From positions 25,009 to 89,008 of the forward strand of contig JAJEIP010000088.1 of assembly GCA_022827885.1 (NCBI GenBank): a stretch of DNA of 64,000 nt, given 5' to 3'. A model generated the notes under the pieces. That model searched no databases. It was given only the letters and a program-made list of their open reading frames with translations, and was not told where the DNA came from. Of the stretch, positions 1 through 53,144 are shown piece after piece. How positions within the stretch are numbered: the first letter of the stretch is position 1; each line of letters begins with the position of its first letter. Position numbers and translations under genes: made by a program. This stretch comes from Candidatus Poribacteria bacterium. Lineage in GTDB: Bacteria; Poribacteria; WGA-4E; WGA-3G.

Positions 1-2259
1 CATCACGGCGATCCGTTATACGGTCCATGGCTCGATCCAGACAACGGATTTCGACCCGTTGCGATTGAACCCTTCAGAGGTATTTTCTTCGGTCAACCCT
101 ACGACTATCAAACGCCTTACCGCGGACAGGATGTCACCGTTGCGGAGTTAGCGGAACGGGAAGGTGATGAACAGGTCGTCTTTACGGAGATTTTCCCGGG
201 CGTATATGCCGACAGGACGGAAAACCCACTCCAGCCCGTGATGGATCCGGAAACGGGGGAACCCCAAGTTAACCCCGATACGGGTGAAACAATCATGACA
301 CGCCAACCTTACAAGGATGCCGATGGCACTGTTATCGACTATGAGAAGAGACAGGTTACTTTATTAGATGGCTACGTCGTGGACCTGGAGCAGTATAGTG
401 GGTTGTTCAACAACACGAAGAAGTATGATCTATCGCCGAGCCATATCGGTGAATTTGCGCTCAGCGGACCGATATGGGGAAATCGGTTGACGTTCGCTGC
501 CTCCAGCCAACTGTCACGAAATCACAGTTATTTTCCGAATAGCAACGGGACATCATATATCTTCCAAGGGAAACTGAAGTTTGAAGTAACGCCGAGTATC
601 AAACTCACCGCAAGTGGGCTTTTCAATCGCGGCGAAAGTCATACCTATGGAGGGGCGCTCCGCTTTTGGCCCAGTGCCGCTCCAGTGTCAAATTCAAGCG
701 CGCGGAATACGTCTGTGAGACTCTCACATAATATCAACTCTGGGACTTTCTATACACTGACAGTTGGGCAATTTCATCGTTCTGGTGAGTCGCATCAACC
801 CGGAAAGGTGTGGGATCCGTTGGAAAAGGCGTTTGATGAAAACGCTTGGGATCCCGATAAATCCTTTGCACAGAATCAGGAAGAAGGCAGGATCAGAAAC
901 CCGCCTCAACAAGCATACAACGATACAACCTATTTCGTGGCAGGAGACAGCAATTCTTGGGGGTCCAGCAGGGCAACAACCTCAATCCTAAGAGCGGATT
1001 TTGCGAGCCAAGTCACGGCGAACCATCAAATCCAGACAGGCGTTGAGTTCTTGGGATACGATCTCTATAATCTCAGCACAACAAATTACGGCAGCTCCAA
1101 CCTCTATATGGAGTATTATGATGTCCAGCCTCAATCCTTAAGTATGTATCTCCAAGACAAGATGGAGTATGAAGGTATGATCGTCAACGCCGGCTTACGA
1201 TATGACCTGTATAATCCATCTGGAGTCTCACCCGCAGACCCGTTTGATCCACTCGAACTGAACGACGATGGCACTATCAAATTGGATAAAAGCACCTATA
1301 AAGTTGGGCTCCCGGTCATCAAAAATCCTGTTGAGGCTTCCACTAAACACATGGTCGCCCCACGCCTCGGCATCTCCTTCCCGGTTACCGATCGGTCGAA
1401 GTTGCACTTTACCTACGGGCATTACTACCAAATTCCACGCGGCGATGATCTCTACGAAAATCTAAATTTTGATATGCGGGGGGCAATCCGAAGAAGGGGC
1501 AACCCGAACTTGGAGCCAGAGCGGACGATCGCTTATGAAGTCGGTATCATACGGCAATTCACCGATGACTTGACGATTGATATCACAGGGTTCACCAAGG
1601 ATATTGATAAGCTTGTCAATAGCGTGCATGTTGACATCACCAACGATTACAGCTACTTCCTTAACGGTGAATTCGACGGTATGATCCACGGCATCTACGG
1701 TCGGGTGCAGGGATTTGAACTTACGATTCGCAAGTGGCGCACGGGGGGCGGTCGCGTCTCTGGCATGCTCAGTTATACCTATTCCGTTGCGAAGGGGAAG
1801 GGCTCCAGTCGAAATCTGGGGTACCTCACCTACTACCGACAGCAACCTGACGTAACCGAAAGTCATCCGTTGGCATGGGATCAACGTCATATCTTTTCTG
1901 GACTGTTAGACATCCAATTGCCCTTCGATGCTGCCGTCAATTTTGTTGGCAGATACGGGAGCGGTTTGCCCTACACACCGAATCCGAGAGCCCCCGTCAA
2001 GCCCGACATCAACTCGAAGCGGTACCCGCCGACCTATAATGTTGACGCACTTATCAGCAAACGGAGTCGGATTGGTGGGTTGACCTATACCTTCTTTGCG
2101 GACATCCGGAACATCTTCAACACGAAGAATCTGGACGATCTCTTAGACGCAGTAACATACGACCGATACGGCATCCCACTCGACAACCAGAAGCATTCGC
2201 ATCCGTTGTCCTGGAGTTCCCCGCGTCTGATTATGATGGGCGTGAGTTTGGATTTTTAG
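1..2259 (+). CDS. TonB-dependent receptor-like outer-membrane beta-barrel, 5' partial (frame open to window edge)
   Basis: Frame 1 has no stop codon from nt 1. The protein is long and beta-rich with Gly/Tyr/Asn-rich segments. It ends ...MMGVSLDF, an aromatic terminus typical of OM barrels and TBDRs. Confidence 0.6.
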   Translation, partial: HHGDPLYGPWLDPDNGFRPVAIEPFRGIFFGQPYDYQTPYRGQDVTVAELAEREGDEQVVFTEIFPGVYADRTENPLQPVMDPETGEPQVNPDTGETIMTRQPYKDADGTVIDYEKRQVTLLDGYVVDLEQYSGLFNNTKKYDLSPSHIGEFALSGPIWGNRLTFAASSQLSRNHSYFPNSNGTSYIFQGKLKFEVTPSIKLTASGLFNRGESHTYGGALRFWPSAAPVSNSSARNTSVRLSHNINSGTFYTLTVGQFHRSGESHQPGKVWDPLEKAFDENAWDPDKSFAQNQEEGRIRNPPQQAYNDTTYFVAGDSNSWGSSRATTSILRADFASQVTANHQIQTGVEFLGYDLYNLSTTNYGSSNLYMEYYDVQPQSLSMYLQDKMEYEGMIVNAGLRYDLYNPSGVSPADPFDPLELNDDGTIKLDKSTYKVGLPVIKNPVEASTKHMVAPRLGISFPVTDRSKLHFTYGHYYQIPRGDDLYENLNFDMRGAIRRRGNPNLEPERTIAYEVGIIRQFTDDLTIDITGFTKDIDKLVNSVHVDITNDYSYFLNGEFDGMIHGIYGRVQGFELTIRKWRTGGGRVSGMLSYTYSVAKGKGSSRNLGYLTYYRQQPDVTESHPLAWDQRHIFSGLLDIQLPFDAAVNFVGRYGSGLPYTPNPRAPVKPDINSKRYPPTYNVDALISKRSRIGGLTYTFFADIRNIFNTKNLDDLLDAVTYDRYGIPLDNQKHSHPLSWSSPRLIMMGVSLDF
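2232..2259 (+). repeat. 28-bp direct repeat, copy 1 (last codons of the receptor gene, MMGVSLDF-stop)
   Basis: tatgatgggcgtgagtttggatttttag. It is repeated at 2993-3020 with 2 mismatches. Confidence 0.9.
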
Positions 2260-2286
2260 TTGAGTAAGATAATAAGGAGGCAAACA

Positions 2287-2529
2287 ATGCGAATGCAAGA
2301 AATCGCAGAAGCCATAAAAACATTAAGTTCCACTGATCGGTATCACTTACGGGAACTATTGAAAGCGCAGGACGAAGCCGATAAACTGGAGGTATTTCAT
2401 CAAGTCTTGCTGTCGAAAGGCTTGGTTAAAGAGGTGAAGAATCCTCCTGTCACGCATACGATTAACCGGCAGCTCATTGAGGTCAAGGGGGCACCTGTCT
2501 CCCAAACAATTATTGAGGAGCGGAAGTAG
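2287..2529 (+). CDS. Type II antitoxin (VapB-like partner of the PIN toxin)
   Basis: Small acidic ORF directly upstream of the PIN gene, with a 3-nt gap. AAGGAGG at 2274-2280 lies 6 nt before the ATG at 2287. The TTG at 2260 in the ORF track is less likely. Confidence 0.6.
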   Translation: MRMQEIAEAIKTLSSTDRYHLRELLKAQDEADKLEVFHQVLLSKGLVKEVKNPPVTHTINRQLIEVKGAPVSQTIIEERK

Positions 2530-2532
2530 GCG

Positions 2533-2991
2533 GTGATCTACTATATGGATAGTAGTTGTCTTGTTAAACGTTACGTCAGTGAAATTGGTTCACAATGGGT
2601 TCTCAGCTTTACTGATCCTGTTGCAGGAAACGAAATTTACACTGTCTGTATTACAGGTGTTGAGGTTATTTCTGCTGTCTCACGACGGAAACGGGATGGC
2701 ACGATTGTTTCTGCTGATGCCACCATGGTAATTGCCACCTTAAAAAATGACTTATTGAACGAGTACCAGATCATTGAAGTGACTGATCAACTGGTGAATC
2801 GGGCGATGACTTTAGCTGAAACTTATGGTTTACGCGGCTTCGATGCGGTGCAGCTCGCAGCATGTGAAGTTCAGGCACTTTGCATCGCAAGTGGAATTCC
2901 TCCGCTCTCTTTTCTTTCTGCAGATAAGATGCTCAATGCCGCAGCTACAGCTGAAGGACTGTCAGTAGATGATCCAAATGCCCACCCTTAA
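2533..2991 (+). CDS. vapC: PIN-domain ribonuclease toxin (VapC family)
   Basis: N-terminus IYYMDSSCLVKRYVSE matches the PIN hallmark (acidic D in xLDSSxLVK). Size is about 150 aa and it is paired with a small upstream antitoxin. Confidence 0.75.
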   Translation: MIYYMDSSCLVKRYVSEIGSQWVLSFTDPVAGNEIYTVCITGVEVISAVSRRKRDGTIVSADATMVIATLKNDLLNEYQIIEVTDQLVNRAMTLAETYGLRGFDAVQLAACEVQALCIASGIPPLSFLSADKMLNAAATAEGLSVDDPNAHP

Positions 2992-2992
2992 A

Positions 2993-3020
2993 TATGATGG
3001 GCGTGAGTCTTGATTTTTAG
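2993..3020 (+). repeat. 28-bp direct repeat, copy 2 (displaced duplicate of the receptor gene 3' end)
   Basis: tatgatgggcgtgagtcttgatttttag. The two differences from copy 1 change Leu TTG to CTT, so the copy still encodes MMGVSLDF-stop. Confidence 0.9.
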
Positions 3021-3038
3021 GAAGGATAACTGACCTAA

Positions 3039-3866
3039 ATGAATCTTCAACAATTAATACCACTATCAGACATATACAATCGAGAAGAAGATTTTTCCAC
3101 AGACCTTGCCGATAATCTTGACGCACTCAGAATCGGAAGTTTTGAGGACGTGGAGACGGAAGCCAGAGTCGGCACGCGTAGGGCAGATATTGTCGGTATT
3201 GGAGAAGGTGGAACGCTTGTAGTCGAAAACCAATTTGGAAAAGCAGATTGGGATCATTGGGGCAGACTGGAGGCTTACGCACGCTTGAAAGAGGCCACGG
3301 TGGCAGTACTGGTGGCAGAGAGTTTTGAGGAACTGATGATTGTCACGTGCAGGTTACGAGATGAGGACAGTACCATTGACTGGTATCTCATTCAAGCACA
3401 AGCCAATTCACATAACGAACTCCTCTTTCACCATGTCGTTGGACCTGCAATAGATATCCAAACTGAGAAAAAAGCCGAAGGTGGGTATAGCGAATTCTGG
3501 CAGCCGATCCGAGATGGCGAACTCGGTGAACTATTTGCTGGTAAACCTGTGCCTATTAGTAATGAAGGTTGGATAAGCAAATCTATTCGCAATGTTGGAG
3601 TGAATCTCTTTCTTACCAACCAGCGATGCTACGTTCAATTGTATTTCGAGGGAAAAGACCGACTGGAACGCAGAGACAAAATTATGGCGTTATTTCCAGA
3701 ATCGGATTATCTTTATAAATATAACGATTCACCCAAACAGATAAGAGTTCAATTTCCTATCCTTGACAAAGGTAAAAACGATCGAGACAATTGGGATGAA
3801 ATCCGCGAGGAATTAGTCAGTTTGGGCACCGACATCTACAACAAAATTAGCGAATCTGGTTTATAA
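3039..3866 (+). CDS. PD-(D/E)XK nuclease-like N-domain + DUF4268-like C-domain protein
   Basis: ADIVGIGEGGTLVVENQFGKADWDHWGRLEAY fits a D...E-x-K restriction-endonuclease-fold core. The C-terminal half (EFWQPI...VQLYFEG) resembles DUF4268. Confidence 0.5.
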   Translation: MNLQQLIPLSDIYNREEDFSTDLADNLDALRIGSFEDVETEARVGTRRADIVGIGEGGTLVVENQFGKADWDHWGRLEAYARLKEATVAVLVAESFEELMIVTCRLRDEDSTIDWYLIQAQANSHNELLFHHVVGPAIDIQTEKKAEGGYSEFWQPIRDGELGELFAGKPVPISNEGWISKSIRNVGVNLFLTNQRCYVQLYFEGKDRLERRDKIMALFPESDYLYKYNDSPKQIRVQFPILDKGKNDRDNWDEIREELVSLGTDIYNKISESGL

Positions 3867-3969
3867 TAAGGAGATTTGGATAAAGCATCTTTGTAGCGTA
3901 AACTGTTAGTTTGCGCCAGACAAACGCTCTCATGCCAGCAGGGCGCGATGTCTATAAAAAGGATGATGT

Positions 3970-4599
3970 ATGCCTTTTGTTGTTGAACTGTATTTTGACC
4001 TCTCAACCGAAGAACGCATTCGCGGCGCATGGAAAACCCTTGATGAAGCAGGGATTAGTGATTCTATGCCTAAAGGTGGTTATCGTCCGCATGTATCGCT
4101 TGGGGTTTGCAACCATCTTGAAACAAATTCACTTGCACAGGAACTTACGACATTTGCCGCGGGTATTGCGCCGTTTCGACTGTCGTTTCCAAACATAGGT
4201 ATCTTTTCTACATCGGAAGGGGTTGTTTACTTAGGGACAACGGTCACTGAACAGTTGCTTAATGTCCACACGGCATTCCATAAAATCTTCAAAAAATACG
4301 CAAAGGAACAACGGGAATATTATACTGTTGGACAATGGGTGCCACACTGCACACTTGCTTTCGGACTGTCGGAGCATCAGATTACTGAAGCCATAACCGT
4401 TTGTCGGCGAATTGAGTTACCAGTTTCCACGGAAGTCACAGGAATTGGGTTACTGGAGGTTTCCGCTACGGGTTGTCAAACGCTGGCTGCGTTCAGCCTT
4501 AAAACGACTGATAGAACCGAACTTAAAGACGAATTACGACCTCAGTACGACGAAACACTTCTAAAAAACGGTATTCGTGGAAAATATGCGAAACAATAA
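3970..4599 (+). CDS. 2H phosphoesterase superfamily protein (2'-5' RNA ligase/LigT-like) with a short basic C-terminal tail
   Basis: Two H-x-(S/T)-x motifs, RPHVSLG and VPHCTLAF, at typical spacing. AAGGA lies upstream of the ATG. Confidence 0.65.
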   Translation: MPFVVELYFDLSTEERIRGAWKTLDEAGISDSMPKGGYRPHVSLGVCNHLETNSLAQELTTFAAGIAPFRLSFPNIGIFSTSEGVVYLGTTVTEQLLNVHTAFHKIFKKYAKEQREYYTVGQWVPHCTLAFGLSEHQITEAITVCRRIELPVSTEVTGIGLLEVSATGCQTLAAFSLKTTDRTELKDELRPQYDETLLKNGIRGKYAKQ

Positions 4600-4625
4600 G
4601 ATAATCAGTCAGGGAAAAATTTACC

Positions 4626-5027
4626 ATGAGAATATATGAATTCACACTCATTTTAACAGCCGACCCGAATGAAGAAGAAGCCGATCGGCTCTATAGCATT
4701 TTTGATGACGGAACTATTAACACTGTTGAAGGGGTCCCTCAAATTCATTTTCACCGTGAGGCATTTTCGTTGGAGTCGGCAATTGGTTCTGCACTCCTGG
4801 ATATTCAAAAAGCAGGTTTTGATGTTGACCATGTGCATATTAAACCAAAAGTTGTGCTTGGCGCAGTCGGCAATATAGATTTACGCGAACGCGGTATTGA
4901 CAAAGCACAAGCAGCAGAACTACGGGCTCGCTTGGCGTGCTTTGCCGAGGATTGGGAAAGTCCTGAAATGGATATCTATGACAACTATGATGAGGAAAAG
5001 GCCAAATTACAAACGCTGAATCTATAA
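4626..5027 (+). CDS. Hypothetical small acidic protein
   Basis: ORF sits 26 nt after the 2H phosphoesterase gene and 3 nt before the next gene. I recognise no diagnostic motif. The C-terminal AELRARLACFAEDWESPEMDIYDNYD segment resembles tails seen on some antitoxins (recollection only). Confidence 0.4.
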   Translation: MRIYEFTLILTADPNEEEADRLYSIFDDGTINTVEGVPQIHFHREAFSLESAIGSALLDIQKAGFDVDHVHIKPKVVLGAVGNIDLRERGIDKAQAAELRARLACFAEDWESPEMDIYDNYDEEKAKLQTLNL

Positions 5028-5030
5028 CTA

Positions 5031-6800
5031 TTGATGAACTTTGAGGGTTTCCGATTAAACAGCGAATCTACACTCGTAAAAATCGTCCTAATCTGTATTC
5101 TGATTGCCTCAGCAGTTTTGGTGCTGCAGAACCTCGGACACAGTGGCATTACATATTGGGACGAAGGGTTTCACGCCGTTGTGGCACGGAATTTGACGAA
5201 GCATCCGCTCAAATTCACGCTCTACGATCAACCCTGGCTCCCTTACAACTATAAAGGGTGGGGTGAAAACCACATCTGGCTACACAAACCACCGGTAGCG
5301 ATGTGGACGATCTGGCTCTCGCACCTGATTTTCGGTATCAATACGTTCGCACTCCGGTTGCCGTCCGCAATCAGTCTCGTTGTAACGACGTGGTTGGCGT
5401 TCCGAATCGCTTCGGATCTTTTTGACAAACGAGCAGGACTCATAGCGGCATTTCTTCAAGCGTTTAACCCGTTTCTCTTTGAGTCGATTCACGGCTATCG
5501 CTATTCGGATCACATTGACATCGCGCTATTGCTCTGGGTACAAGTCTCGTGTTGGTTCTTACTCCGCGCCATTCGGACAGGAAAACGGAAGAATTATATC
5601 TTATCCGGCGTTGCGATGGGTGTCGCGTATCTGTCGAAAAGCTACCTTGCACTCATCACCTTTGGCATTGCGTTGGTTGTTTGGGCGGTCAGTTGGTATA
5701 CTGGACGGGGCAATACCGCAAGGAAAATTAAAATAAGCGATGTTGGGTTACAGCTCTTAGCGGCAATTGCGACAGTCGCACCGTGGGTCATCTACTGCCT
5801 GATTTACTATCGCAAGGAATTCCTTTGGGAACATAAACGCGTATTGGATCATCTCAACACCGATGTCGAAAGCTGGGGAGCAAGTTGGGATCGACCGCTG
5901 TTTGACTATATGCCGCTCTTTTATCCGGTATTCTATGCTGCGCTTGTTGCGGCAGTGTTATGTCTAATTGTGGTCCTGTTCAGACGTTGGGAGTTGGCAG
6001 AACTCTTTGTGTTAGCTTGGGGGATCGGTGTGATTGTTCCGCACACGCTTGCGGAGACGAAAACACCATCGGCGACGATGATTGCTGTACCACCGCTGCT
6101 GATGTGTCTTGCAGCAGTGATCAGTCGGGCATGGCAACGACGGGATTGGATTTACACCGCTATTTGGATGGCGGGGATGCTTGTGATTACTATCATCTCT
6201 GGTGGACGGACGCTCGTCAAAAGCAGAGATCAGTTCGATGGACTCAAGAAATTCGCGCCTTTTATCCAGACAAATTTCTGGATTGTTGAGCAATTGATCG
6301 GGTTCGGGGTGTTGCTCGCAATTTTCGCGGGAGTGCATATGCTGGTTCGCCATCGCAACCTGCAGCGGTGGATGTGGTTGGGTCTCCGGACAACGGCACT
6401 AATAATCGCGTTGTTCTATGCAGGACGCTATGTGCAAGCTGCTTATAGGGTTACGGAGCGAAATAGTCAAGTCCCCCTATACGAAGTGAGTGGGCAACGT
6501 CTCCACCGTGAAATGCCAGAGAACGCCTGCTTTTTTCTTGACGATGAACGCGTCGGCGCGCATTTCGATTTGATGTATTATGCCGACAGGTCAACGTATC
6601 AGATTTATAATAAGCACATGAAGGAACCTCGCGATTTCAAGAACCAAGCGGAGATAGCGCGCGAAGCCGGTGCGATCCCTTATCTTTTCTCTGTCAAAGA
6701 AACGGTTTACAATTATCCGCTGTTCATTGAAGGCACCGTGGACAGCGGGAACGGAAAAATGCAACACTATCGAGTTTTTGAGATTACAGAAATTGAGTAA
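5031..6800 (+). CDS. Polytopic membrane glycosyltransferase, GT39/GT83 (ArnT/PMT-like) family
   Basis: About 12 predicted TM segments. The N-terminal loop motif YWDEGFH resembles the DE-containing first loop of ArnT/PMT_2 enzymes. There is a large C-terminal soluble domain. Confidence 0.55.
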   Translation: MMNFEGFRLNSESTLVKIVLICILIASAVLVLQNLGHSGITYWDEGFHAVVARNLTKHPLKFTLYDQPWLPYNYKGWGENHIWLHKPPVAMWTIWLSHLIFGINTFALRLPSAISLVVTTWLAFRIASDLFDKRAGLIAAFLQAFNPFLFESIHGYRYSDHIDIALLLWVQVSCWFLLRAIRTGKRKNYILSGVAMGVAYLSKSYLALITFGIALVVWAVSWYTGRGNTARKIKISDVGLQLLAAIATVAPWVIYCLIYYRKEFLWEHKRVLDHLNTDVESWGASWDRPLFDYMPLFYPVFYAALVAAVLCLIVVLFRRWELAELFVLAWGIGVIVPHTLAETKTPSATMIAVPPLLMCLAAVISRAWQRRDWIYTAIWMAGMLVITIISGGRTLVKSRDQFDGLKKFAPFIQTNFWIVEQLIGFGVLLAIFAGVHMLVRHRNLQRWMWLGLRTTALIIALFYAGRYVQAAYRVTERNSQVPLYEVSGQRLHREMPENACFFLDDERVGAHFDLMYYADRSTYQIYNKHMKEPRDFKNQAEIAREAGAIPYLFSVKETVYNYPLFIEGTVDSGNGKMQHYRVFEITEIE

Positions 6801-25597: not shown

Positions 25598-26004
25598 CGA
25601 TTGAAGGATACCTGAATCGTTCATCTGAAGCAAGCGCTGGAGAACTTTCATACGATACGCGCTATCCGCGACCCTTTTAATTTTTTCGTTTAAAACTGTT
25701 CATTTTACTATCATACGCATTTTTTTGGTCAAATCCCAAAAAAAATATAAAATTTATCAAAAATTATGCAATTTACCCTAAACTTTTTTGATTTTATATC
25801 TATAGTTAAGTAACAGGAGTTATAAAGCTCCGTAGTTTAAAGTAACGGCGTTCATAAGGCAAACGGCGAGTATTTGCATAAGATTAGATAAAATGGCTGT
25901 ATTGGCAGGGAACGTTCTCCAGCGGCTATCAGACCCCACCCTAATTTATTTCTACAGTGATGCTCTGAAAAAATTCTATTTGTCAAACAAAAAGGAGAAA
26001 ACTC

Positions 26005-39150: not shown

Positions 39151-40161
39151 ATGAAACGTGTGCCTTTCCAAATTTTACGAGATGAATTTTATCGTGTGCT
39201 TGCAGCAATCGGGTTTGATGGCGAGCGCGGGATGCTGTGTGCGCGACTGTTCGCCGAAAATCAGCGTGACGGCGTGTACTCGCACGGACTCAATCGCTTC
39301 CCCGGATTCGTTGCTGGACTGGAGAACAAACAGATCGATTTTCGGGCGCAACCAGAGAAAATTGAGGGGTTCGGTGCCTTAGAACGATGGGATGGCAAGA
39401 TGGGGGTCGGACTCGTCAATGCTCACCTCTGTATGCAACGGGCAACGGAACTCGCTGATGTCCACGGTATTGGGTGTGTTGGGCTTTCAAATACAAATCA
39501 CTGGATGCGTGGTGGTGCCTATGCCTTACAAGCCGCAGAAGCCGGATACGTCGGGATATGCTGGACGAATACGACGCGACTCATGCCACCGTGGGGTTCT
39601 GCGGAAAAGAAGATTGGGAACAATCCGATGGCGATTGCTGTGCCGCGACAAGAGGGACACATTCTGCTGGATATGGCGATGAGCCAGTATTCAAACGGGA
39701 AATTGGAAGTGCTGCAGCTACAAGGAAAACAATTGCCGTTACCGGGTGGATACGACACCAAAGGGGCGTTAACAGTTGAACCGGGAGAGATTCTCGATTC
39801 CGCAAGAGCACTGCCGATCGGCTATTGGAAGGGATCGGGTTTGGCATTGGTGCTTGACACGATGGCATCCGTTATTTCGGGTGGGCAAGCGACACACGAA
39901 ATAGGAAAGCAGGGTTCTGAATACGCCGTCTCTCAGGTGTATATTGCGATTAATGCCACCGGAATGATGGGGCAAGCGGTGTTGGAAGAAACGGTTGCAG
40001 CGATTATTGATGACTTCCAAACGGCTATCCCTTTGGACGAAGATGAGAGTGTGAGGTATCCTGGGGAAGGCATGTTGGGGACACGGCAAGAAAGCCTTGA
40101 AAAGGGGGTCCTTGTGGATGAGGCGCAGTGGCAGGCGTTATTAGAGATGACTATCTCTTAA
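39151..40161 (+). CDS. Ldh_2 family oxidoreductase (malate/L-lactate dehydrogenase family 2; 3-dehydro-L-gulonate 2-dehydrogenase-like)
   Basis: AGGAG precedes the ATG at 39151. GVYSHGLNRFP and SNTNHWMRGGAY motifs. Confidence 0.65.
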   Translation: MKRVPFQILRDEFYRVLAAIGFDGERGMLCARLFAENQRDGVYSHGLNRFPGFVAGLENKQIDFRAQPEKIEGFGALERWDGKMGVGLVNAHLCMQRATELADVHGIGCVGLSNTNHWMRGGAYALQAAEAGYVGICWTNTTRLMPPWGSAEKKIGNNPMAIAVPRQEGHILLDMAMSQYSNGKLEVLQLQGKQLPLPGGYDTKGALTVEPGEILDSARALPIGYWKGSGLALVLDTMASVISGGQATHEIGKQGSEYAVSQVYIAINATGMMGQAVLEETVAAIIDDFQTAIPLDEDESVRYPGEGMLGTRQESLEKGVLVDEAQWQALLEMTIS

Positions 40162-40179
40162 AATTAGTTCCACAAACAC

Positions 40180-40219
40180 AAACCTACCTCACCGAACCGC
40201 AAGGAAAATTAAAAATATG
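40180..40219 (+). promoter_or_regulatory. Conserved leader motif, copy D (caaacctacctcACCGAACCGCAAGGAAAATTAAAAAtATG). Its ATG opens only a 17-codon ORF (40217-40270).
   Basis: Lies 19 nt after the Ldh_2 stop and upstream of the next gene's promoter. Confidence 0.5.
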
Positions 40220-40221
40220 GC

Positions 40222-40249
40222 TTGCACTCTTTTTTTAACAGCGTATAAT
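40222..40249 (+). promoter_or_regulatory. Sigma70-like promoter (TTGCAC-16-TATAAT) for the Gfo/Idh/MocA gene
   Basis: Hexamers at 40222-40227 and 40244-40249. Confidence 0.4.
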
Positions 40250-40316
40250 ACATCTGAGCACGAAATCTGAAACGACACCCAAATCACCAATCTAAGCTGG
40301 ATTCAGGAGATAACTC

Positions 40317-41433
40317 ATGGCATTACGCGCAGGGATTGTCGGGTGTGGCGGGATTAGCCGAAGCCACGCGGGCGCGCACGCAAACTTGGAAGGCGTCGAT
40401 CTCGTCGCGATGTGTGACATAAACCAAGATGCGCTCAACAGCCGCGCCGACGAATACGGTGTTTCAAACCGATATACCGATTACGAAGAGATGTTCGCAC
40501 GCGAGGGACTCGATATCGTAAGTGTGTGCACACGCACCGTTACACGCACCGGTTGCGATTGCTGCCGCGAAAGAAGGTATCCACGTTTTATGTGAGAAAC
40601 CGTTGTCCGTTGATTTGGAAATGGCAGACCAGATGCGCACAGCATGTCGTGAGGCAGGTGTGCACTTGGCGGTGAGTCATCAGTTCCGATTTACCCCGCT
40701 TTTTCGGCACGCGAAATCTCTGGTCGATGCCGGTAAAATTGGAGAACTCCGTTCGATTCGTGAAGTCGGCAAAGGACGTGAAGCCGGATTCGAGTTGATG
40801 GAGATGGGGGTCCACTATTTTGATGAGATGGATTTTTTCTTAGACGGTATCTCTTGGATTCAGGCGCATATCACATATCAGGGACACGATGTGACGGAAG
40901 CGGACATTATGCACAGCAGCGAATTGTGCAAAACCGACCGACGCGACAACGGTATCGTTGCCGGAGATACAATGCTCGTGCATATCGGTGGTGGAAACAG
41001 TGCCTACGGTATCATGGAACTTTATTGCCGCGAACCCAGACACGGGTGGATGATGGGACCGCATCTGCTCGGTTCAGAGGGGCAATTGATGGTAAAACCG
41101 CACCCAGACACCGGTATAGATGAAATGTGGTACTGTCCGTTTGATGTCTCTTTTGCAGCGCATACACCCGCATGGGAACAGATAGAACTTGACCCATCAG
41201 CGTTTCTGATCTCCGGAAAATCGTGGCAGTCGCGCCACACCATCTGGAGCGCAAAAAATATGCGAGACGCAATTCTTAACGAAAACCAACCAGAACTCGG
41301 TGGATGTAACGCCCTGACTTCCCTTGAGTGTGTCAGCGCAACCTACGTCTCCCATTTCAGTGGGAAAAAGGTACAACTGCCGTTAGAGGAGCGGAGTCAT
41401 CCGCTTGTGACACGTCTTGAGGAGAAAAAATGA
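40317..41433 (+). pseudogene. Gfo/Idh/MocA family oxidoreductase interrupted by a +1 frameshift near 40530-40536
   Basis: ORF 40317-40595 carries the Rossmann N-terminus (GIVGCGGISRSH). ORF 40522-41433 continues with PLHAPVAIAAAKEGIHVLCEKPL. Skipping one nt after codon ACA (40530-40532) joins them as DIVSVCT-APLHAPVAI. Confidence 0.7.
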
Positions 41434-45404: not shown

Positions 45405-46253
45405 CTATTGGGCATCACCGGCACCATTTCCATTACCGGCATGATCACCATCACCAGCTCCGTTGCCATTACCGGTACCATTTCCATTACCAGCATCAGC
45501 CTCAGGCATTTCAGGTGTTTCAGGCATCTCGGGCATTTCAGGCATTTCAGGTGTTTCACCAGCACCTTCAGGCATTTCAGGCATTTCAGGTGTTTCAGGC
45601 ATCTCAGACATTTCAGGCATTTCAGGCATGGAGAGTGAGACGAAGACACTGTCGTTTGTGGCTTTGGCGTGGCAACCGTGACAACCGTTGCCTTCATGTC
45701 CTGGAACGTGAGATCCCGCCTTCAGCTCGGGCGTGCCATCACTGGAAAGAAAATATTTGGCATACATCCACCCATTGTGGCCCGCATACATCGGATCGTC
45801 GTCTTTCATCATTACAGCAACTTTATCGACAGATGTTTCGGTCTCATCCATAATTGCTTTGACAATTATGGTCCCAACGGGATATTCTGTTGCTCCTGCC
45901 TTGTTCGCCATAGCACCGACCTCGTTGATATAGACCGTGCGTGAGGTAAAAACATCGCTGCCTGGATTGTGAGCTGCCCCGGTTCCCGCAGCATTCCCGG
46001 CTGCAGCAGCCTCTGCTACGGTCATCGTTGGTGCTGGAAGCGCGACATGCGCCCACGACATATACATTGTCGGGTCCAGCAGCTTCGTCATATCCATCAT
46101 CATGTCTGTTGACATGTCATCGCTTGTCGTCATGTCATCGTCTGTCATCATATCGTCAGCGGCTGGTTCTAACATTTTTTGCGCGCGCTCACAAGATACG
46201 AAAGCGACACAGGCGATCAAAATCGCAATCAAAGCGATTTGGGGTTTTAACAT
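45405..46253 (-). CDS. Lipoprotein: Met/Asp-rich linker + cytochrome P460-like heme domain (CHGCH) + (P-E-M)n repeats + Gly/Asn-rich tail
   Basis: Lipobox AFVSC. PVGTIIVKAI...GWMYAKY...GNGCHGCHAKATNDSVFV fits the P460 family with a C-terminal CxxCH. AAGGAG lies upstream. Confidence 0.6.
   Translation of the reverse strand: MLKPQIALIAILIACVAFVSCERAQKMLEPAADDMMTDDDMTTSDDMSTDMMMDMTKLLDPTMYMSWAHVALPAPTMTVAEAAAAGNAAGTGAAHNPGSDVFTSRTVYINEVGAMANKAGATEYPVGTIIVKAIMDETETSVDKVAVMMKDDDPMYAGHNGWMYAKYFLSSDGTPELKAGSHVPGHEGNGCHGCHAKATNDSVFVSLSMPEMPEMSEMPETPEMPEMPEGAGETPEMPEMPEMPETPEMPEADAGNGNGTGNGNGAGDGDHAGNGNGAGDAQ
45501..45629 (-). repeat. In-frame 9-bp tandem repeat (ttcaggcat and variants) encoding PEM/PET/SEM units
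   Basis: Read directly. About 14 units with one short interruption. Confidence 0.85.
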
Positions 46254-46378
46254 TATTAAATATACTCCTTGTCTATTAAAATAAGAATCAACGAAGAGTT
46301 GCAGGCTTTTAAGTGATAAAGTTTATCCATTGTATTCTGTTACTCTTCGAGTTCATCTATTACACAACTTCACTTTAA

Positions 46379-46407
46379 ATAATACGATATTTCGCTTTAA
46401 TTTTCAA
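46379..46407 (-). promoter_or_regulatory. Sigma70 promoter (minus strand TTGAAA-17-TATTAT) of the P460 lipoprotein gene
   Basis: -35 at 46402-46407 and -10 at 46379-46384. Homologous to the promoter at 47136-47164. Confidence 0.6.
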
Positions 46408-46550
46408 TAAAAATATATCGTAGCGGATCGCTATTCGGAGACTGATCCTACTGAACGTAAGTTCTATATAAAAATTTAGAACGCATAGGTTGGCTTAAAA
46501 TGAGACGCAGCATGTTCGACAATCGAGGGATGGTGGAGTGTTGGACAACG

Positions 46551-46596
46551 AAAAGGAGACCAGCAACCATAGTATACAGTTACTGGTCTCTTTTTT
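46551..46596 (-). terminator. Rho-independent terminator after the Met/Asp-repeat gene
   Basis: gagaccag (46556-46563) / ctggtctc (46583-46590) flanked by A- and T-tracts. Confidence 0.7.
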
Positions 46597-46619
46597 AGAA
46601 ATATTGTGAAATGGACTTA

Positions 46620-46979
46620 TTAGGCATCATCCTCCATATCCTCTTCCATGTCCTCTTCCATGTCCTCTTCCATCATGCCGTCGTCCATGGTGTCATCCAT
46701 CATGCCGTCATCCATCATGCCGTCGTCCATCATGGTGTCATCCATCATGGTGTCATCCATCATGGTGTCGTCCATCATGGTGTCGTCCATCATGGTGTCA
46801 TCCATCATGGTGTCATCCATCATGGTGTCATCCATCATGGTGTCGTCCATCTTTTCCGAATCGCTGTCTGCCATCATATCATCCGTAACCGGTGTCATGA
46901 TCTGCTGTGCTCTGTCACAAGATACAAAGGCGAAACAAGCGACCAAAACGGCAATTAAAATCATCTGAAATTTTAACAT
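46620..46979 (-). CDS. Small lipoprotein made almost entirely of Met/Asp(Glu) repeats (MDDTM x8, MDDGM, MEED x3)
   Basis: Signal peptide and lipobox MLKFQMILIAVLVACFAFVSC are homologous to those of the 45405-46253 gene. AAGGAG lies 8 nt before the ATG. Confidence 0.7.
   Translation of the reverse strand: MLKFQMILIAVLVACFAFVSCDRAQQIMTPVTDDMMADSDSEKMDDTMMDDTMMDDTMMDDTMMDDTMMDDTMMDDTMMDDTMMDDGMMDDGMMDDTMDDGMMEEDMEEDMEEDMEDDA
46635..46850 (-). repeat. In-frame tandem repeats: 12-bp unit x3 (46635-46670), then 15-bp unit catcatggtgtc(a/g)tc x~12 (46671-46850)
   Basis: Read directly. Eight consecutive near-identical 15-mers at 46728-46847. Confidence 0.9.
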
Positions 46980-47135
46980 TGTTAGTGCTCCTTATACTGT
47001 AGACTTCCTTATTTCTATATTCTGAAGTCAGTAGTTACGGAAAAGTCACAAATCTCATAGTGCGGCTTGAAAACAATAAAGTTTATTCAGGTTAAATGTG
47101 ACTCTCCACATCTATTGACCATACAATTTGGGTAA

Positions 47136-47164
47136 ATTATACTATTTTTTACTTTAATTTTCAA
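47136..47164 (-). promoter_or_regulatory. Consensus-like sigma70 promoter (minus strand TTGAAA-17-TATAAT)
   Basis: -35 at 47159-47164 and -10 at 47136-47141, about 150 nt upstream of the start at 46979. Confidence 0.65.
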
Positions 47165-47200: not shown

Positions 47201-48883
47201 TTATGGATCGACTTTCAGGATTTCTGAGCGAACTCTCAGGATATAGGGGTTTTTCGGGGTTTGAGCAAAAGCAGTTTCGATTTCACGGCGTGCATCGGGA
47301 ATGCGGTTGAGGCGATAGTAAACGAAGGCAAGTGTGGCGCGATGTATCGGTTGATCGTCGCTTTCGACTGCAGTCTTGGCAAGGGTCAATGCTTCGTCCA
47401 ATTTCCTGTTTTCCGTTGCGAGTAAGGATGCTAATGCCTCTTTGGGAAACGGAACGTCTGGGGCGAGTTGGAGGGCGCGACGGAAATCTATCTCTGCCAT
47501 ACCGGATTTATTCTGTTTTTGGTAAATCTTGCCACGCCACAAGTATCCAGGTGCCCATGTCGGTTCGTGTTGTATCCCCATCGTGAGTGCGTTTGCGGAA
47601 GCTTGTAAGTCCCCGGACTTCTCATGCAAGTTTGCGAGTTGAACGTAGGTGTCCATAAAATCCGGTTCGTGTTGGATAAGCGAGAGATAGTGTGAAACCG
47701 CTGCGGCTTGGTTACCGAGTCTGGTGTCTATCATGCCGAGGTGCAGAAGTGCCTGACGCGAGGTAGGTTCCATTATAAGAACCTGTTGATACGATTGCTT
47801 GGCATCTACGAATTTTCCGAGTTGCATCTGAACGTAGGCATAATCTTTCAAAGCGGGGATAAAGGTTTCATCCGTTTCGATGGCTTTTTGGAGAGGCGTT
47901 AAGGCGCGCTCCGGTTGTTTCTTCTCAATGAGCCAATGGGCTTGCCCGCGATAACGTTCCGCCAGCCTTCGACGATAACGCGCTTCAGCAATTTCGGCTT
48001 CTCTGGTGTTCCCCATATTACTGAGAACAGCTGCGAGCGATTTGTAAAAAATGGGTTCTTCTGGAGCATATCGAATGGCACGTTCATAGAAATGTTGGGC
48101 GACAGTGAATTGTCCGCGTCTCGCGCTAACCTCACCCCGCCCGAAAGCAGCACTGGCGAGCGTCTCGTCTTGGGTGAGTGCTTCCCGAAATACGGCATCG
48201 GCTTCGTCGATGCGGTTGAGTTTGAGGAGAACGTGCCCAAGGTTATTATAGGCAGCGGTCGCCTCTGGATGTAGTTGCACAGCGACGATATAGTATCTCC
48301 GTGCCTGCTCTAAATTTCCACGCTCGGTTTCAATCTGTCCTAAAGCAAGATACCACGCCACGGGGGCGTCTTCACCGGCGCCTTTAACGGCTTTTTGGAA
48401 CCACATATCGGCTTCGTCGAGTTGTTTATTGCGATGATATGCAGCAGCGAGTTTGCCTTGCACCGTAAGCTGTAGGCGGGATATTGTAATATTGCCTTGC
48501 GGGTGTGTTGAAAGGACTCGCAAGGCACGTTGGAAAGCAGTAATAGCGGTGGGATAGTCCTTCAGTTTTGCGGCGGCATCTCCCGTGCCGATGTAGACAA
48601 GTGGAAAATCTGGTGCCGTTTTACCGAGTGCCTGATATAAACGGAGTGCCTCGCGCCATTCCTCCGCTTGAAGCGCACGCTCGGCATCTTTCAACTGTTT
48701 CTGGAATTCTTTAGGAAAGTCCGCTATATCGTCTCCAGATGCCAACGCAGTGAGGATAAACAGAAGTGTAGCAATGACAAAATGGGCCCAGCCATTTGTA
48801 GTCTGTTTACCTATCGCATGTCTTCGGGGCTGATTGTGCCGCATCCGTTTACTTCGCCTCACTCTTCTCTTGTGCAAGTTCAT
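47201..48883 (-). CDS. Membrane-anchored TPR-repeat protein
   Basis: One N-terminal TM segment (FVIATLLFILTALA) followed by many 34-aa TPR-like repeats. The start could also be the Met at 48844. Confidence 0.65.
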   Translation of the reverse strand: MNLHKRRVRRSKRMRHNQPRRHAIGKQTTNGWAHFVIATLLFILTALASGDDIADFPKEFQKQLKDAERALQAEEWREALRLYQALGKTAPDFPLVYIGTGDAAAKLKDYPTAITAFQRALRVLSTHPQGNITISRLQLTVQGKLAAAYHRNKQLDEADMWFQKAVKGAGEDAPVAWYLALGQIETERGNLEQARRYYIVAVQLHPEATAAYNNLGHVLLKLNRIDEADAVFREALTQDETLASAAFGRGEVSARRGQFTVAQHFYERAIRYAPEEPIFYKSLAAVLSNMGNTREAEIAEARYRRRLAERYRGQAHWLIEKKQPERALTPLQKAIETDETFIPALKDYAYVQMQLGKFVDAKQSYQQVLIMEPTSRQALLHLGMIDTRLGNQAAAVSHYLSLIQHEPDFMDTYVQLANLHEKSGDLQASANALTMGIQHEPTWAPGYLWRGKIYQKQNKSGMAEIDFRRALQLAPDVPFPKEALASLLATENRKLDEALTLAKTAVESDDQPIHRATLAFVYYRLNRIPDARREIETAFAQTPKNPYILRVRSEILKVDP

Positions 48884-49823
48884 CGTCCAAAATATGCCAA
48901 GTTTCCTCTGCTTTCCTTTGGGTTAACCATGCTTCAAATTGTTCATTTGCCAACTCCTGCCGAATCCGCTCTGTAATCTCCCCACTGACGTCTTGGTATG
49001 TTTTTTGGTACGCTGAATTATTCCGAATGCGTTCAACGATCTGGTATCCCTCCGAAACGCGGAAGGGTATGCTCCGTTCAGAAACTTGTAATTTCGTTAC
49101 GATAGTCCCCAAGGGTGTGTCTATTTCAAGCGTTGTGACCTCGAGCCTGAGTTCTAACTGTGTTTCATAAATTTCACGGACTGCCTGAAATGTCTGTCCC
49201 TGTTGTAAACGTTCATTGAGTTTTTGCACCAGGGTCTCAGCTTCCTGTTTTTCTACCTCGGATCCATTCTTTGGCATGACGATAAGTAGGGATTTGAAGG
49301 TGACTGTCGGTGGCACAATAAACTCGGCACTATTGGCGTTGTAATACGATTTGGCTAATTGCGCGACCTTTTCGCTGTTGACGGTATTGAAAAATATGCG
49401 GCGAAAGAATTCATCGTAAATCAACTGATCGTAGACCCATGCTTCTATTGCTGATTTTTCCAATTCGGAGTGCTGCAAAGTGCTTTGAAGTGCTGTATCC
49501 GAAGCATATTCGACAGAAATTTCTGCTATTTTTGCGGCAACTTGTGTGTTACGTTCGGTTACGACGATGCCGCGCCGTTCGGCTTCTTGTAGGACGAATG
49601 TGCGGTTGATGATAGTATTGAGTGCCGCGCGTTTCTCAGCAAGGGTCGGCGGCGCGGCGGCGCGTATTCCTAAAAAAACTGTAGCAATACGAAATTCATC
49701 TTCGAGCTCACTACGTGTGATAGCGTCCTCGTTGACGACCGCGACAATTGAATCGATAAGTGTTTGGGTGTATACGTTACCACCGATACAGAATAGGATC
49801 AGAAAGGTGATGTAGCGCATCAT
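48849..49823 (-). CDS. SurA N-terminal-domain periplasmic chaperone-like protein
   Basis: Signal peptide, then LIDSIVAVVNEDAITRSELEDE, typical of SurA/PpiD-type N-domains. Confidence 0.45.
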   Translation of the reverse strand: MMRYITFLILFCIGGNVYTQTLIDSIVAVVNEDAITRSELEDEFRIATVFLGIRAAAPPTLAEKRAALNTIINRTFVLQEAERRGIVVTERNTQVAAKIAEISVEYASDTALQSTLQHSELEKSAIEAWVYDQLIYDEFFRRIFFNTVNSEKVAQLAKSYYNANSAEFIVPPTVTFKSLLIVMPKNGSEVEKQEAETLVQKLNERLQQGQTFQAVREIYETQLELRLEVTTLEIDTPLGTIVTKLQVSERSIPFRVSEGYQIVERIRNNSAYQKTYQDVSGEITERIRQELANEQFEAWLTQRKAEETWHILDDELAQEKSEAK

Positions 49824-52439: not shown

Positions 52440-53144
52440 TTATTCCTTTAATGTTATCAAACCGCAACCGATTTTGGCACCGCCGCCTGGCAGGATTGTG
52501 GGGATCGTCGTCTGCGTGTTGGTGTGGGAGTGTGCTGGTGTCCCTGGTGGATGGAAATGCGGTTGGACCGTCTCCATATTTATGTCCGTTTGCATGTTCA
52601 TGGGTTGCGCGTGCGGATGGGTTAGGAAAGTGTCCCCAGTTTCATGAATCATAATCAGTTTGCCGAGGATATCGGTATTTGGATCTCCACCGAGAGACCA
52701 GAACGGGGTCTTAAATTCCAGAATACCCATGCCTGCCTCGCCGACTGTGATGTTACCGACTTCGCCTACACCGATAGGTGGCGTATCGAGTACCGCTTGG
52801 ACGACAGGGATACCGGATGTCCCCGCTGGAACTTCCATAGGATGCCAATGCGGTCCTATATCGTCGCAGCTGCTACCTGTATGGAGATGAATGGCGTGCA
52901 AGCCCGATGTAGCACCCTGAATTTCGATGACAACATGAACCCCTTCATCCATTTCTGTGAAGGTCGCTGTGCCGGTTAGACCACTCCCCTCTATTTCAGA
53001 AATGGTGGCAACTGCGACTTTGTCAATGGATTCTGTGGTGATCATCTGGGTTGGAATTTTTTCGCAACCCGTTACAAGGCATATTGCGATAATAAGAATT
53101 ATGATTACTTTGCGCGTGTCGCGTTTAAAAGCCATGAAGGTCAA
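52440..53144 (-). CDS. Cu/Zn-superoxide-dismutase-fold lipoprotein with degenerate Zn site and a His/Met-rich insertion
   Basis: Lipobox LVTGC. GLHAIHLHTGSSC, GPHWHP, LIMIHETGD and terminal GGGAKIGCGLI mirror SodC motifs. The insertion HPHAQPMNMQTDINMETVQPHFHPPGTPAHSH lies before the last strand. Start is either the TTG at 53144 or the ATG at 53135. Confidence 0.5.
   Translation of the reverse strand: MTFMAFKRDTRKVIIILIIAICLVTGCEKIPTQMITTESIDKVAVATISEIEGSGLTGTATFTEMDEGVHVVIEIQGATSGLHAIHLHTGSSCDDIGPHWHPMEVPAGTSGIPVVQAVLDTPPIGVGEVGNITVGEAGMGILEFKTPFWSLGGDPNTDILGKLIMIHETGDTFLTHPHAQPMNMQTDINMETVQPHFHPPGTPAHSHTNTQTTIPTILPGGGAKIGCGLITLKE

Follow-up and report, generated by a model that had tools for sequence, protein, structure and literature searches.

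Two methionine-rich (Met-rich) lipoprotein genes lie on the minus strand of a 64-kb stretch of DNA from Candidatus Poribacteria, a phylum of sponge symbionts (the whole stretch analysed, 64,000 nucleotides [nt], is referred to here as the window). The initial annotation took the regions upstream of these genes for a dedicated cis-regulatory element serving the pair: near-consensus promoters followed by long leaders with a long-range helix around a 13-bp palindrome, which would be either a hairpin or the operator of a dimeric repressor. Is there such an element, and which of its parts matters? Judging from comparison with homologs, the two regions are paralogous and represent an ancient promoter-plus-leader unit that drives a two-gene module throughout Candidatus Poribacteria. 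We favor the reading, which we consider probable, that this unit carries a conserved structured leader acting in cis at the RNA level. The promoter, the long leader, and the equivalent helix of the proposed element are conserved, but the palindrome is not its core. The two transcription units comprise the following features (leader types are described below).

45405 to 46253, minus strand: gene 1, a 282-amino-acid lipoprotein having a cytochrome P460-family domain with CXXCH and Met-rich N- and C-terminal tails
46265 to 46270, minus strand: Shine-Dalgarno (SD) sequence AAGGAG of gene 1
46254 to 46374, minus strand: leader of gene 1, a derived allele of type A, spanning about 119 nt between the predicted transcription start (+1, inferred at about 46373) and the base preceding the ATG
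46379 to 46407, minus strand: gene 1 promoter, with -35 TTGAAA (46407-46402), a 17-nt spacer, and -10 TATTAT (46384-46379)
46620 to 46979, minus strand: gene 2, a 119-amino-acid Met/Asp-rich lipoprotein consisting mostly of DDTMM-type repeats
46988 to 46993, minus strand: SD sequence AAGGAG of gene 2
46980 to 47130, minus strand: leader of gene 2, of type B, spanning about 150 nt when counted from the predicted +1
47136 to 47164, minus strand: gene 2 promoter, with -35 TTGAAA (47164-47159), a 17-nt spacer, and -10 TATAAT (47141-47136)

The ATG codons occupy 46253-46251 (gene 1) and 46979-46977 (gene 2) of the minus strand. The P460 domain of gene 1 corresponds to Pfam PF16694 (E = 1e-10), and every named sequence among its 384 homologs is from Candidatus Poribacteria. 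A Pfam search with the gene 2 protein returned zero matches; this protein shares homology with that of gene 1 in the signal peptide and N-terminus.

An ancient promoter-plus-leader unit

Both promoters were confirmed where the initial annotation had placed them (TTGAAA-17-TATTAT and TTGAAA-17-TATAAT), and they match the sigma-70-type consensus at 10 (gene 1) and 11 (gene 2) of 12 positions. The 64 kb contain two copies, and no more, of the extended -35 string TTGAAAATTAAAG, against 0.2 expected. The long leaders with their shared blocks were also found as described, the upstream regions being 74% identical on alignment.

For comparison, 58 loci were recovered from Poribacteria genomes. Pairwise identity among these loci was 0.6 to 0.99 from the -35 to the SD and about 0.25 just upstream of the -35. 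The string TTGAAAATTAAAGCGAAA.AT.GTATAAT is common to 69 homologous promoters, and the promoter, including its spacer, is kept in all leader types, phylum-wide. The spacers of the window (46385-46401, ATTAAAGCGAAATATCG; 47142-47158, ATTAAAGTAAAAAATAG), which are kept between clades whose P460 proteins are about 40% identical, carry phased A-tracts and form a loose direct repeat with TTTAAAGTGAAG near the start.

Leaders of types A and A' stand upstream of P460 genes, and those of type B upstream of the small Met-rich gene; type C is a longer leader of a distant clade in which the Met-rich gene lies downstream of P460. The recurrent order, found also in the close relatives of the window, is a TPR gene, a type B leader with the Met-rich gene, and a type A leader with P460. 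When a covariance model (R1) was run against a search space of about 444 kb centered on P460 genes, all 41 matches were on the coding strand and upstream of one of the two gene families; the gene 1 leader of the window scored 67.7 bits (E = 1e-14). As far as sampled, this leader family, uncatalogued until now, is found in Poribacteria only and before two gene families. Two segments of the leaders that lie outside the helices are conserved as well.

46350 to 46372, minus strand: conserved 5' segment GUGAAGUUGUGUAAUAGAUGAAC, whose 3' part is the 5' side of the extension of helix P1 (see below)
47051 to 47063, minus strand: type-B-specific conserved insertion GCACUAUGAGAUU (family form, CACCAAGAGAUUCG), 13 nt, between helix P3 and the 3' arm of P1

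The 5' segment holds the most conserved leader bases of the family (GAAGUUGUGUAG), with an identity of 0.8 to 0.99 versus about 0.25 upstream of the -35.

The similarity of the two leaders in the window, together with the shared signal peptide, could also be a leftover of recent duplication under no constraint, an option that the initial annotation had itself raised. Our comparison contradicts it: each of the types A and B has its own series of orthologs in dozens of species and its own diagnostic features, and the sequence upstream of the -35 is already saturated, in contrast to the leaders. We give this explanation almost no credence. Because types A and B are conserved separately across Poribacteria, the leaders of the window represent two old orthologous series rather than recent duplicates.

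A conserved fold in the leaders

The long-range helices noted at equivalent places in the two leaders, CGAAGAGU (46349-46342) with ACUCUUCG (46299-46292) in gene 1 and GGAGAGUCACA with UGUGACUUUUC in gene 2, held up; both correspond to P1 of a conserved fold. The core of type A/A' comprises P1, a P2 hairpin (4 bp, 6-nt loop), and P3 (GGGCUUU/AAAGCCC) with a conserved loop, GUCGCUUA (UGUCGCUU). The parts of the fold in the window are as follows.

46342 to 46349, minus strand: 5' arm of type A P1, CGAAGAGU
46292 to 46299, minus strand: 3' arm of type A P1, ACUCUUCG
46327 to 46340, minus strand: P2 region, degenerate in the gene 1 leader (AACAGAAUACAAUGG versus ACCACAAUGAAGUGG in the family)
46303 to 46324, minus strand: P3 hairpin of gene 1, weakened, with AAACUUU (46324-46318), loop AUCACUUA (46317-46310), and AAAGCCU (46309-46303)
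47097 to 47107, minus strand: 5' arm of type B P1, GGAGAGUCACA
47040 to 47050, minus strand: 3' arm of type B P1, UGUGACUUUUC

P1 closes the fold as GAAGAG(U)/(A)CUCUUC in type A and as GGAGAGUNNC/GNNACUYUUCC in type B. Its extension varies by species (GAUC/GAUC, GGAU/AUCC, GUUGA/UCAAC, or GUUCG/CGAAC), with the two sides mutually complementary throughout. P2 likewise varies by type, being CCAC/GUGG in A, AUUC/GAAU in A', and GUUC/GAAC or CGCG/CGUG-like in B. In the gene 1 leader of the window, five of the seven P3 pairs are left.

We counted column-wise pairing on a MAFFT alignment that had not been fitted to any structure, with the partners slid as a control. Regarding type A/A', 90.5% of the cells were paired versus 31 to 51% with slid partners; for P3 the value was 98.8%, with four pairs altered on both sides. 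Type B showed 84% versus 32 to 55%, and four doubly changed pairs each in P1 (10 bp) and P3. RNAalifold found P1 and P3, and when all possible 4-bp stacks were ranked, those of P3 took ranks 1, 2, 3, 6, and 8 of 1378 and those of type B P1 ranks 3, 4, 5, and 9 of 5943. We also used a register-free test, in which a 5' segment was paired with its own 3' segment or with one from another species. The z scores of this partner swap were -6.6 for P1, -3.5 for P2 (type A, -4.5), -6.4 for P3, and -5.0 for the full type B P1. The flanks that form the P1 extension paired at -3.89 kcal/mol versus -2.63 +/- 0.24 kcal/mol (0 of 5000 permutations as good). G-U pairs are many (e.g., 18 at one type B P1 position), a frequency that is compatible with the transcribed strand only.

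The window alone would not have revealed this signal. Its leaders folded no better than dinucleotide shuffles (z = -0.33 for gene 1 and +0.49 for gene 2), and the minimum-energy fold of gene 2 chose a local hairpin and left the long-range helix unused; canonical leaders (that of locus L122 and both of L042) folded better than shuffles (z of about -2.2). The helices exceed chance through the comparison of about 60 homologous loci, not from the window alone, and the palindrome is not lifted in this way. A kissing interaction between the P2 and P3 loops was rejected (partner swap not significant).

Type C leaders (L038, L041, and L044-L056 at about 4100-4440; L036-L051 at about 2830-3000) are about 170 nt long. 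They retain the promoter and the 5' GAAGUUAUGUAGAAUAUGAAU segment, whereas the interior has been rebuilt and a well-covarying hairpin (CGUAGC...GCUACG) added directly before the SD. A P1 analogue of different sequence (UGACAAGUGC/GCAUCUUGUCA) and the extra hairpin together have nine doubly changed pairs.

The pairing signals also bear on the idea of control at the DNA level, in which the block from the -35 to about +25 (spacer ATTAAAGCGAAA.AT, start-proximal AAAGTGAAGTTGTGTAG) would be the site of a regulator or specialized holoenzyme and the RNA fold would be secondary. The persistence of the spacer and of the early transcribed sequence between clades with P460 proteins about 40% identical speaks for it, as does a loose direct repeat (ATTAAAGCGAAA and TTTAAAGTGAAG, about 22 bp apart) that is readable in types A and C by eye, with no statistic. 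However, the repeat is poor in type B, no regulator gene lies nearby, and the pairing-specific signals downstream would be left unexplained. We consider this idea quite unlikely.

The palindrome is a local, derived feature

The two palindromes exist as annotated, both perfect and of a 6-1-6 layout.

46315 to 46327, minus strand: palindrome GATAAAGTTTATC of gene 1, running from the end of P2 through the P2-P3 linker and the P3 5' arm into the first part of the P3 loop
47075 to 47087, minus strand: palindrome AATAAAGTTTATT of gene 2, made of the type B P3 5' arm and loop

Most homologs are not palindromic at these sites (GATGGGCTTTGTC in type A; ACAGGCTTTGTC/ATAGGCTTTATT in type B). The GAUAAACUUUAUC of the window aligns with the family sequence GAUGGGCUUUGUC, which is not a DNA palindrome, so the gene 1 palindrome is a derived state. 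Canonical type A leaders occur in L001, L003, L012, and L039, and the near relative L122 (94% protein identity) has the canonical GATGGGCTTTGCC and a canonical P2. The derived allele is shared by L118 to L120 (96% protein identity; in L118 with the center changed from C to T) and L121 (84%). It differs from L122 at 13 of 30 positions, mostly by G-to-A changes and all in P2 and the 5' part of P3; from the P3 3' arm to the ATG, a single base differs. It was this burst of changes that weakened P2 and P3 of the type A copy in the window. In type B, the palindrome AAUAAACUUUAUU is restricted to a subclade and is broken in L012 (UUUUUU) and, by a change that keeps a P3 pair, in L021 and L031 (CUUCAUU).

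The view that the palindrome forms a hairpin or operator at the core of the element was therefore not sustained: it is unconserved, and its halves do not covary. As an RNA hairpin with G-U pairs allowed, it was 84 to 90% pairable, the same as shuffles (210 and 366 of 500 were as good), and this candidate was rejected; the partner swap of its halves gave no signal (z = -1.4 overall, -0.1 in type A, and -0.8 in type B). Nor is a palindrome the proper content of the enclosed 42 to 46 nt, which ancestrally hold two hairpins, P2 and P3. The symmetric G:C-to-A:T change of its outer positions was seen, but it is not symmetry as such: the residues are fixed separately in each leader type. In type A, the G is the last base of P2 and the C belongs to the P3 loop; type B has A and U instead. 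On the sequence evidence, the palindrome arose in one sublineage from the P3 5' arm and loop and is local and recently derived. The case also holds a caution for reading from sequence alone, in that the most striking local feature was the least conserved part of the element.

An operator would make the palindrome a DNA site for a dimeric, possibly metal-responsive repressor common to both promoters. Perfect 6-1-6 palindromes do stand at equivalent places in both leaders of the window genome, the core ATAAAGTTTAT common to both has its sole exact matches there in the 64 kb, the arms are retained in L118 and L121, and five of the six palindrome-creating type A changes give type B identity. One-mismatch copies of the core were the only others in the window (25747, 27653, and 55187), and that at 25747 lies in AT-rich intergenic sequence with no resemblance to a leader. 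Against an operator, the palindrome is missing in most homologs, L122 among them; in L012, L021, and L031 the type B copy is disrupted while the P3 pair is preserved; and the palindrome halves lack covariation. It lies 52 to 64 nt (gene 1) and 49 to 61 nt (gene 2) downstream of the -10, or about +45 to +60 from the predicted start, and neither copy overlaps or abuts the promoter or start. Pfam detected no DNA-binding regulator in the eight neighboring open reading frames (39.1 to 53.1 kb), i.e., within about 7 kb, although a regulator may be encoded elsewhere. We regard an operator as very unlikely. The Fur box has the core GATAAT-N-ATTATC, and the CopY "cop box" is TACAnnTGTA. The gene 1 palindrome (GATAAA-G-TTTATC) is one base per half-site off the 6-1-6 Fur core, and the genes look metal or oxidant related; unlike the Fur and CopY operators, the palindrome of the window is unconserved in orthologous leaders, is situated well past the promoter, and lacks a cognate regulator gene in the vicinity.

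The derived allele (46303-46340 in the window; the leaders compared lie at 1381-1500 of L118 and of L122) is distributed unevenly, being present in L118 and L121 and absent from L122, a pattern that suggests an old polymorphism, recombination, or short-tract conversion toward type B. Five of the six changes that create the type A palindrome make that stretch identical to the type B sequence of the same genome, which hints at short-tract conversion or convergence in the window lineage. Gene conversion from type B could account for the shared ATAAACTTTAT, yet it leaves the changes in P2 unexplained.

Transcription of the leaders

RNA contigs were obtained from four sponge or marine metatranscriptomes and belong to relatives 90 to 95% identical to the window, in other genomes. 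Gene-2-type contigs ran from the coding sequence through the leader and ended at 47110-47114 in four of four runs, with a depth of 99 to 887 at the leader versus 0 to 27 upstream of the promoter. The leader of this type is thus transcribed over at least 131 nt, so the start is not close to the ATG, in agreement with the long leader of the initial annotation. The ends are 22 to 26 nt past a -10 with the right spacing to its -35, as suits a sigma-70 promoter, and about 15 to 20 nt short of the predicted +1. Two readings fit these ends: transcription may start near 47129, with the extreme 5' end lost as is usual, or the RNA may be processed at the base of P1.

The depth of the gene 2 bin was 860 to 1230, versus 15 to 28 for the neighboring TPR gene and 30 to 106 for P460. 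Counted by contig in the four metatranscriptomes, gene-2-type depth was 550 to 5800 versus 13 to 28 for the adjacent TPR gene. The DDTMM repeat region collapsed to very deep short contigs, and repeat number differs between relatives.

Such abundance raises the possibility of a passive, translation-competent leader with no sensor, in which the P1 rod would shield the mRNA of an abundant envelope protein from 5'-end-dependent decay and leave the SD open. The near-consensus promoter and the very high mRNA abundance would suit this role. In most type A leaders, the 5' end has its pairing partner directly ahead of the SD (AAAGUGAA/UUCACUUU), and the P1 extension covaries; there is neither a terminator nor SD sequestration, and P1 is kept while the inner hairpins vary or erode, the window included. 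However, the unpaired GAAGUUGUGUAG, the P3 loop UGUCGCUU, and the P1 sequence are deeply conserved, none of which a protective stem needs; the eroded leaders of the window are no more stable than shuffles; and the contig ends at 47110-47114, if real, leave the far 5' segment outside the stable RNA. We consider a purely stabilizing leader somewhat unlikely, though quite possible.

The 5' untranslated region of Escherichia coli ompA is a stabilizing leader of this kind, which protects the abundant mRNA of an envelope protein from 5'-end-dependent decay. The Poribacteria leaders resemble it in length (about 120 to 150 nt here), in serving a highly expressed exported protein, and in their 5'-proximal pairing and open SD. 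They differ in lacking any sequence relationship to it, in having unpaired segments conserved phylum-wide, and in being part of a unit duplicated before two genes.

A proposed cis-acting leader for mRNA fate

We infer a cis-acting RNA leader that sets the fate of its mRNA. A constitutively strong promoter would transcribe the unit, and control would come afterwards, at the RNA level, with the leader setting the stability and/or translation of a very abundant message. In the variant that we favor, the leader would be a recognition platform for a trans-acting partner, protein or small ligand, because the sequence of P1, as well as that of the unpaired 5' segment and P3 loop, is conserved beyond the needs of pairing. 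A close second would be the passive stabilizing leader, with its 5' end tucked into a long P1 rod. The copies in the window, being eroded, may work less well or differently.

Our commitment extends only to a cis-acting leader for mRNA fate, given that no Rfam match, terminator, SD sequestration, alternative pairing, or nearby regulator was found. Rfam 15 gave 0 matches at gathering thresholds for the window and 20 related loci; in E-value mode, both window leaders and both L042 leaders gave only chance-level matches to unrelated families. A scan of metagenome contigs for the pattern GAAGAGN{19,25}TTTRTCGCN{9,14}ARYTCTTC yielded no new instances, the 59 matches listed all being chance ones without P2/P3. 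We found nothing relevant in the literature on Poribacteria riboswitches, Poribacteria P460, or "Poribacteria-1." Other candidate mechanisms were rejected or found no support, and none of the alternative pairings tried (anti-SD, anti-P1, and kissing loops) covaried. The P1 3' arm as an anti-SD (ACUCUU with AAGGAGU) was unsupported in that SD accessibility equaled that of shuffles and the P1 sequence of type C differs. For the 5' segment as an anti-P1 (GAAGUUGUG with CGCAAC..CUUC), compensation was seen in only one of five variant sequences, and the type B insert AAGAGAU as a local competitor for the P1 3' arm had z = +0.7. An upstream open reading frame was considered for the AUG after the SD-like GAAGAG in some type A leaders; both AUG and frame are unconserved.

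Several observations weigh against RNA-level control. As to the covariation that the initial annotation looked to homologs for, compensatory changes and pairing of 84 to 99% were present, but a phylogeny-aware test found no significant pair. In its null, parsimony substitutions on a neighbor-joining tree of 56 sequences were re-dealt per branch and scored by a G-test with average product correction; zero proposed pairs were significant (best p = 0.014 to 0.03; E = 0.2 to 0.5 over 15 pairs). The naive G-test was dominated by clade-defining changes, and the partner-swap statistics ignore phylogeny. The power of the covariation test is low because the helices are nearly invariant in sequence. The fold therefore stands as conserved pairing potential with compensatory change, well supported and not formally proven, formal covariation not being established. 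The inner architecture differs among leader types (a register shift of P2, the type B insertion, and the rebuilt type C), which speaks against one common ligand pocket. The genes persist in the window, L118, and L121 despite the erosion of P2 and P3, and L002 and L004 carry an insertion of about 330 nt that separates the fold from the P460 start codon. No terminator-like site was found between the fold and the ATG, and SD accessibility (0.41 versus 0.38 in shuffles; n = 38) gave no signal of sequestration. Finally, the RNA contigs are unstranded and derive from relatives rather than the window genome, and those of gene 1 type run across the promoter (read-through or DNA), leaving the type A start unmapped.

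An alternative pairing of the P3 5' arm is also possible.

47071 to 47084, minus strand: possible short hairpin P3a, with AAAC (47084-47081), loop UUUAUU, and GUUU (47074-47071)

P3a joins the P3 5' arm to the 3' part of the loop (GGGC/GCUU; AAAC/GUUU in gene 2 of the window) and cannot coexist with either the long P3 or the palindrome hairpin. Being incompatible with P3, it could mark a conformational switch between P3 and P3a, which is possible on thin evidence. In type B, P3a was 95.5% paired, with 1 of 500 shuffles as good, the signal coming largely from one clade; in type A leaders the pairing was unsupported.

A riboswitch for a small molecule or ion would use the P1-P2-P3 junction as the aptamer for a metabolite or metal tied to the Met-rich proteins, and binding would shift P1 or P3 and thereby translation or decay. 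The layout of a three-way junction in a 5' untranslated region with conserved loop and junction bases, the mutually exclusive P3 and P3a, which have the P3 5' arm in common and each gave a partner-specific signal of pairing, and the presence of the element before both genes of one functional module agree with this. We nevertheless think it unlikely: there were zero Rfam matches, no expression platform was found, the core differs among types A, A', B, and C and is eroded in the window, the P3a signal is mostly that of one clade and absent in type A, and the element is confined to two gene families of one phylum. In a bolder form, the leader would be a new class of sensory RNA confined to Poribacteria, a three-way-junction switch whose P3 5' arm toggles between P3 and P3a on a ligand tied to the Met-rich proteins (such as copper or an oxidant-derived signal) or a dedicated protein, and which would in this way set the output of an mRNA that is among the most abundant of the symbiont. 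This, too, seems unlikely; if true, the palindrome-bearing allele of the window would be a retuned or disabled variant.

Among known systems, the purine riboswitch (RF00167) is similar in its position in a 5' untranslated region, a P1 enclosing two hairpins, conserved loop and junction bases, and a defined gene set. The Poribacteria leader differs in that it has no Rfam 15 match, a P2 of only 3 to 4 bp with a register shift, no supported loop-loop pairing, expression platform, or known ligand, and a P1 that is almost invariant rather than freely covarying. A motif named "Poribacteria-1," which Weinberg et al. reportedly described in 2017, is said to be an orphan structured RNA of a narrow lineage found by comparative genomics; it would resemble our leaders in being restricted to Poribacteria, upstream of protein-coding genes, and of unknown function. 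If it is among the Rfam 15 models, it has no match to the leaders.

Poribacteria are uncultivated sponge symbionts whose gene regulation is almost unexplored. The unit drives a very abundant message for Met-rich periplasmic lipoproteins, one with a P460-type heme domain, and these proteins look as if they are tied to metal or oxidant handling in the host. Since the leader is conserved and structured, it offers a defined handle on posttranscriptional control in this phylum, and it is amenable to in vitro probing or to reporters in a surrogate host. A sensor would reveal a new ligand-RNA pair, and a stabilizer would provide a compact, portable high-expression leader.

Neighboring genes and other features

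46556 to 46590, minus strand: intrinsic-terminator-like hairpin 3' of gene 2, splitting the two transcription units
47010 to 47004, minus strand: second, SD-like copy AAGGAAG in the gene 2 leader

A counterpart of the terminator-like hairpin was found upstream of type A leaders in other loci. The SD-like copy is the product of a tandem duplication of AUAGAAAUAAGGA (47004-47016 and 46988-46998) in the type B leader of the subclade of the window; it lies about 17 nt upstream of the true gene 2 SD and might serve as a ribosome standby site.

The conserved upstream neighbor (47201-48883) encodes a membrane-anchored TPR protein with a CcmH/CycH-like TPR domain. A SurA-like chaperone is next (48849-49823), and a periplasmic Cu/Zn superoxide dismutase (52440-53144) is encoded 5.5 kb off. 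By their predicted products, these neighbors fit an envelope, metal, or oxidant context for the Met-rich pair.

The element of about 330 nt in L002 (2672-3000) and L004 (2710-3000) bears a promoter-like TTGAC(C/A..)TATTATAAC string, and in L016 and L017 (about 2740-2880) an element of this type stands in place of the usual promoter. It looks like a small mobile or repeat element with its own promoter.

Dozens of RNA contigs from the four runs matched a stretch of about 40 nt at about 40180-40220 (intergenic region 40161-40317; ACCTACCTCACCGAACCGCAAGG...), with a local depth of 550 to 2470. They match nothing beyond that stretch and diverge on both sides; the stretch is probably a dispersed repeat. 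Similar hairpin repeats of the CCTAC.../GGGTTTCTAACCCC type occur upstream of several related loci.

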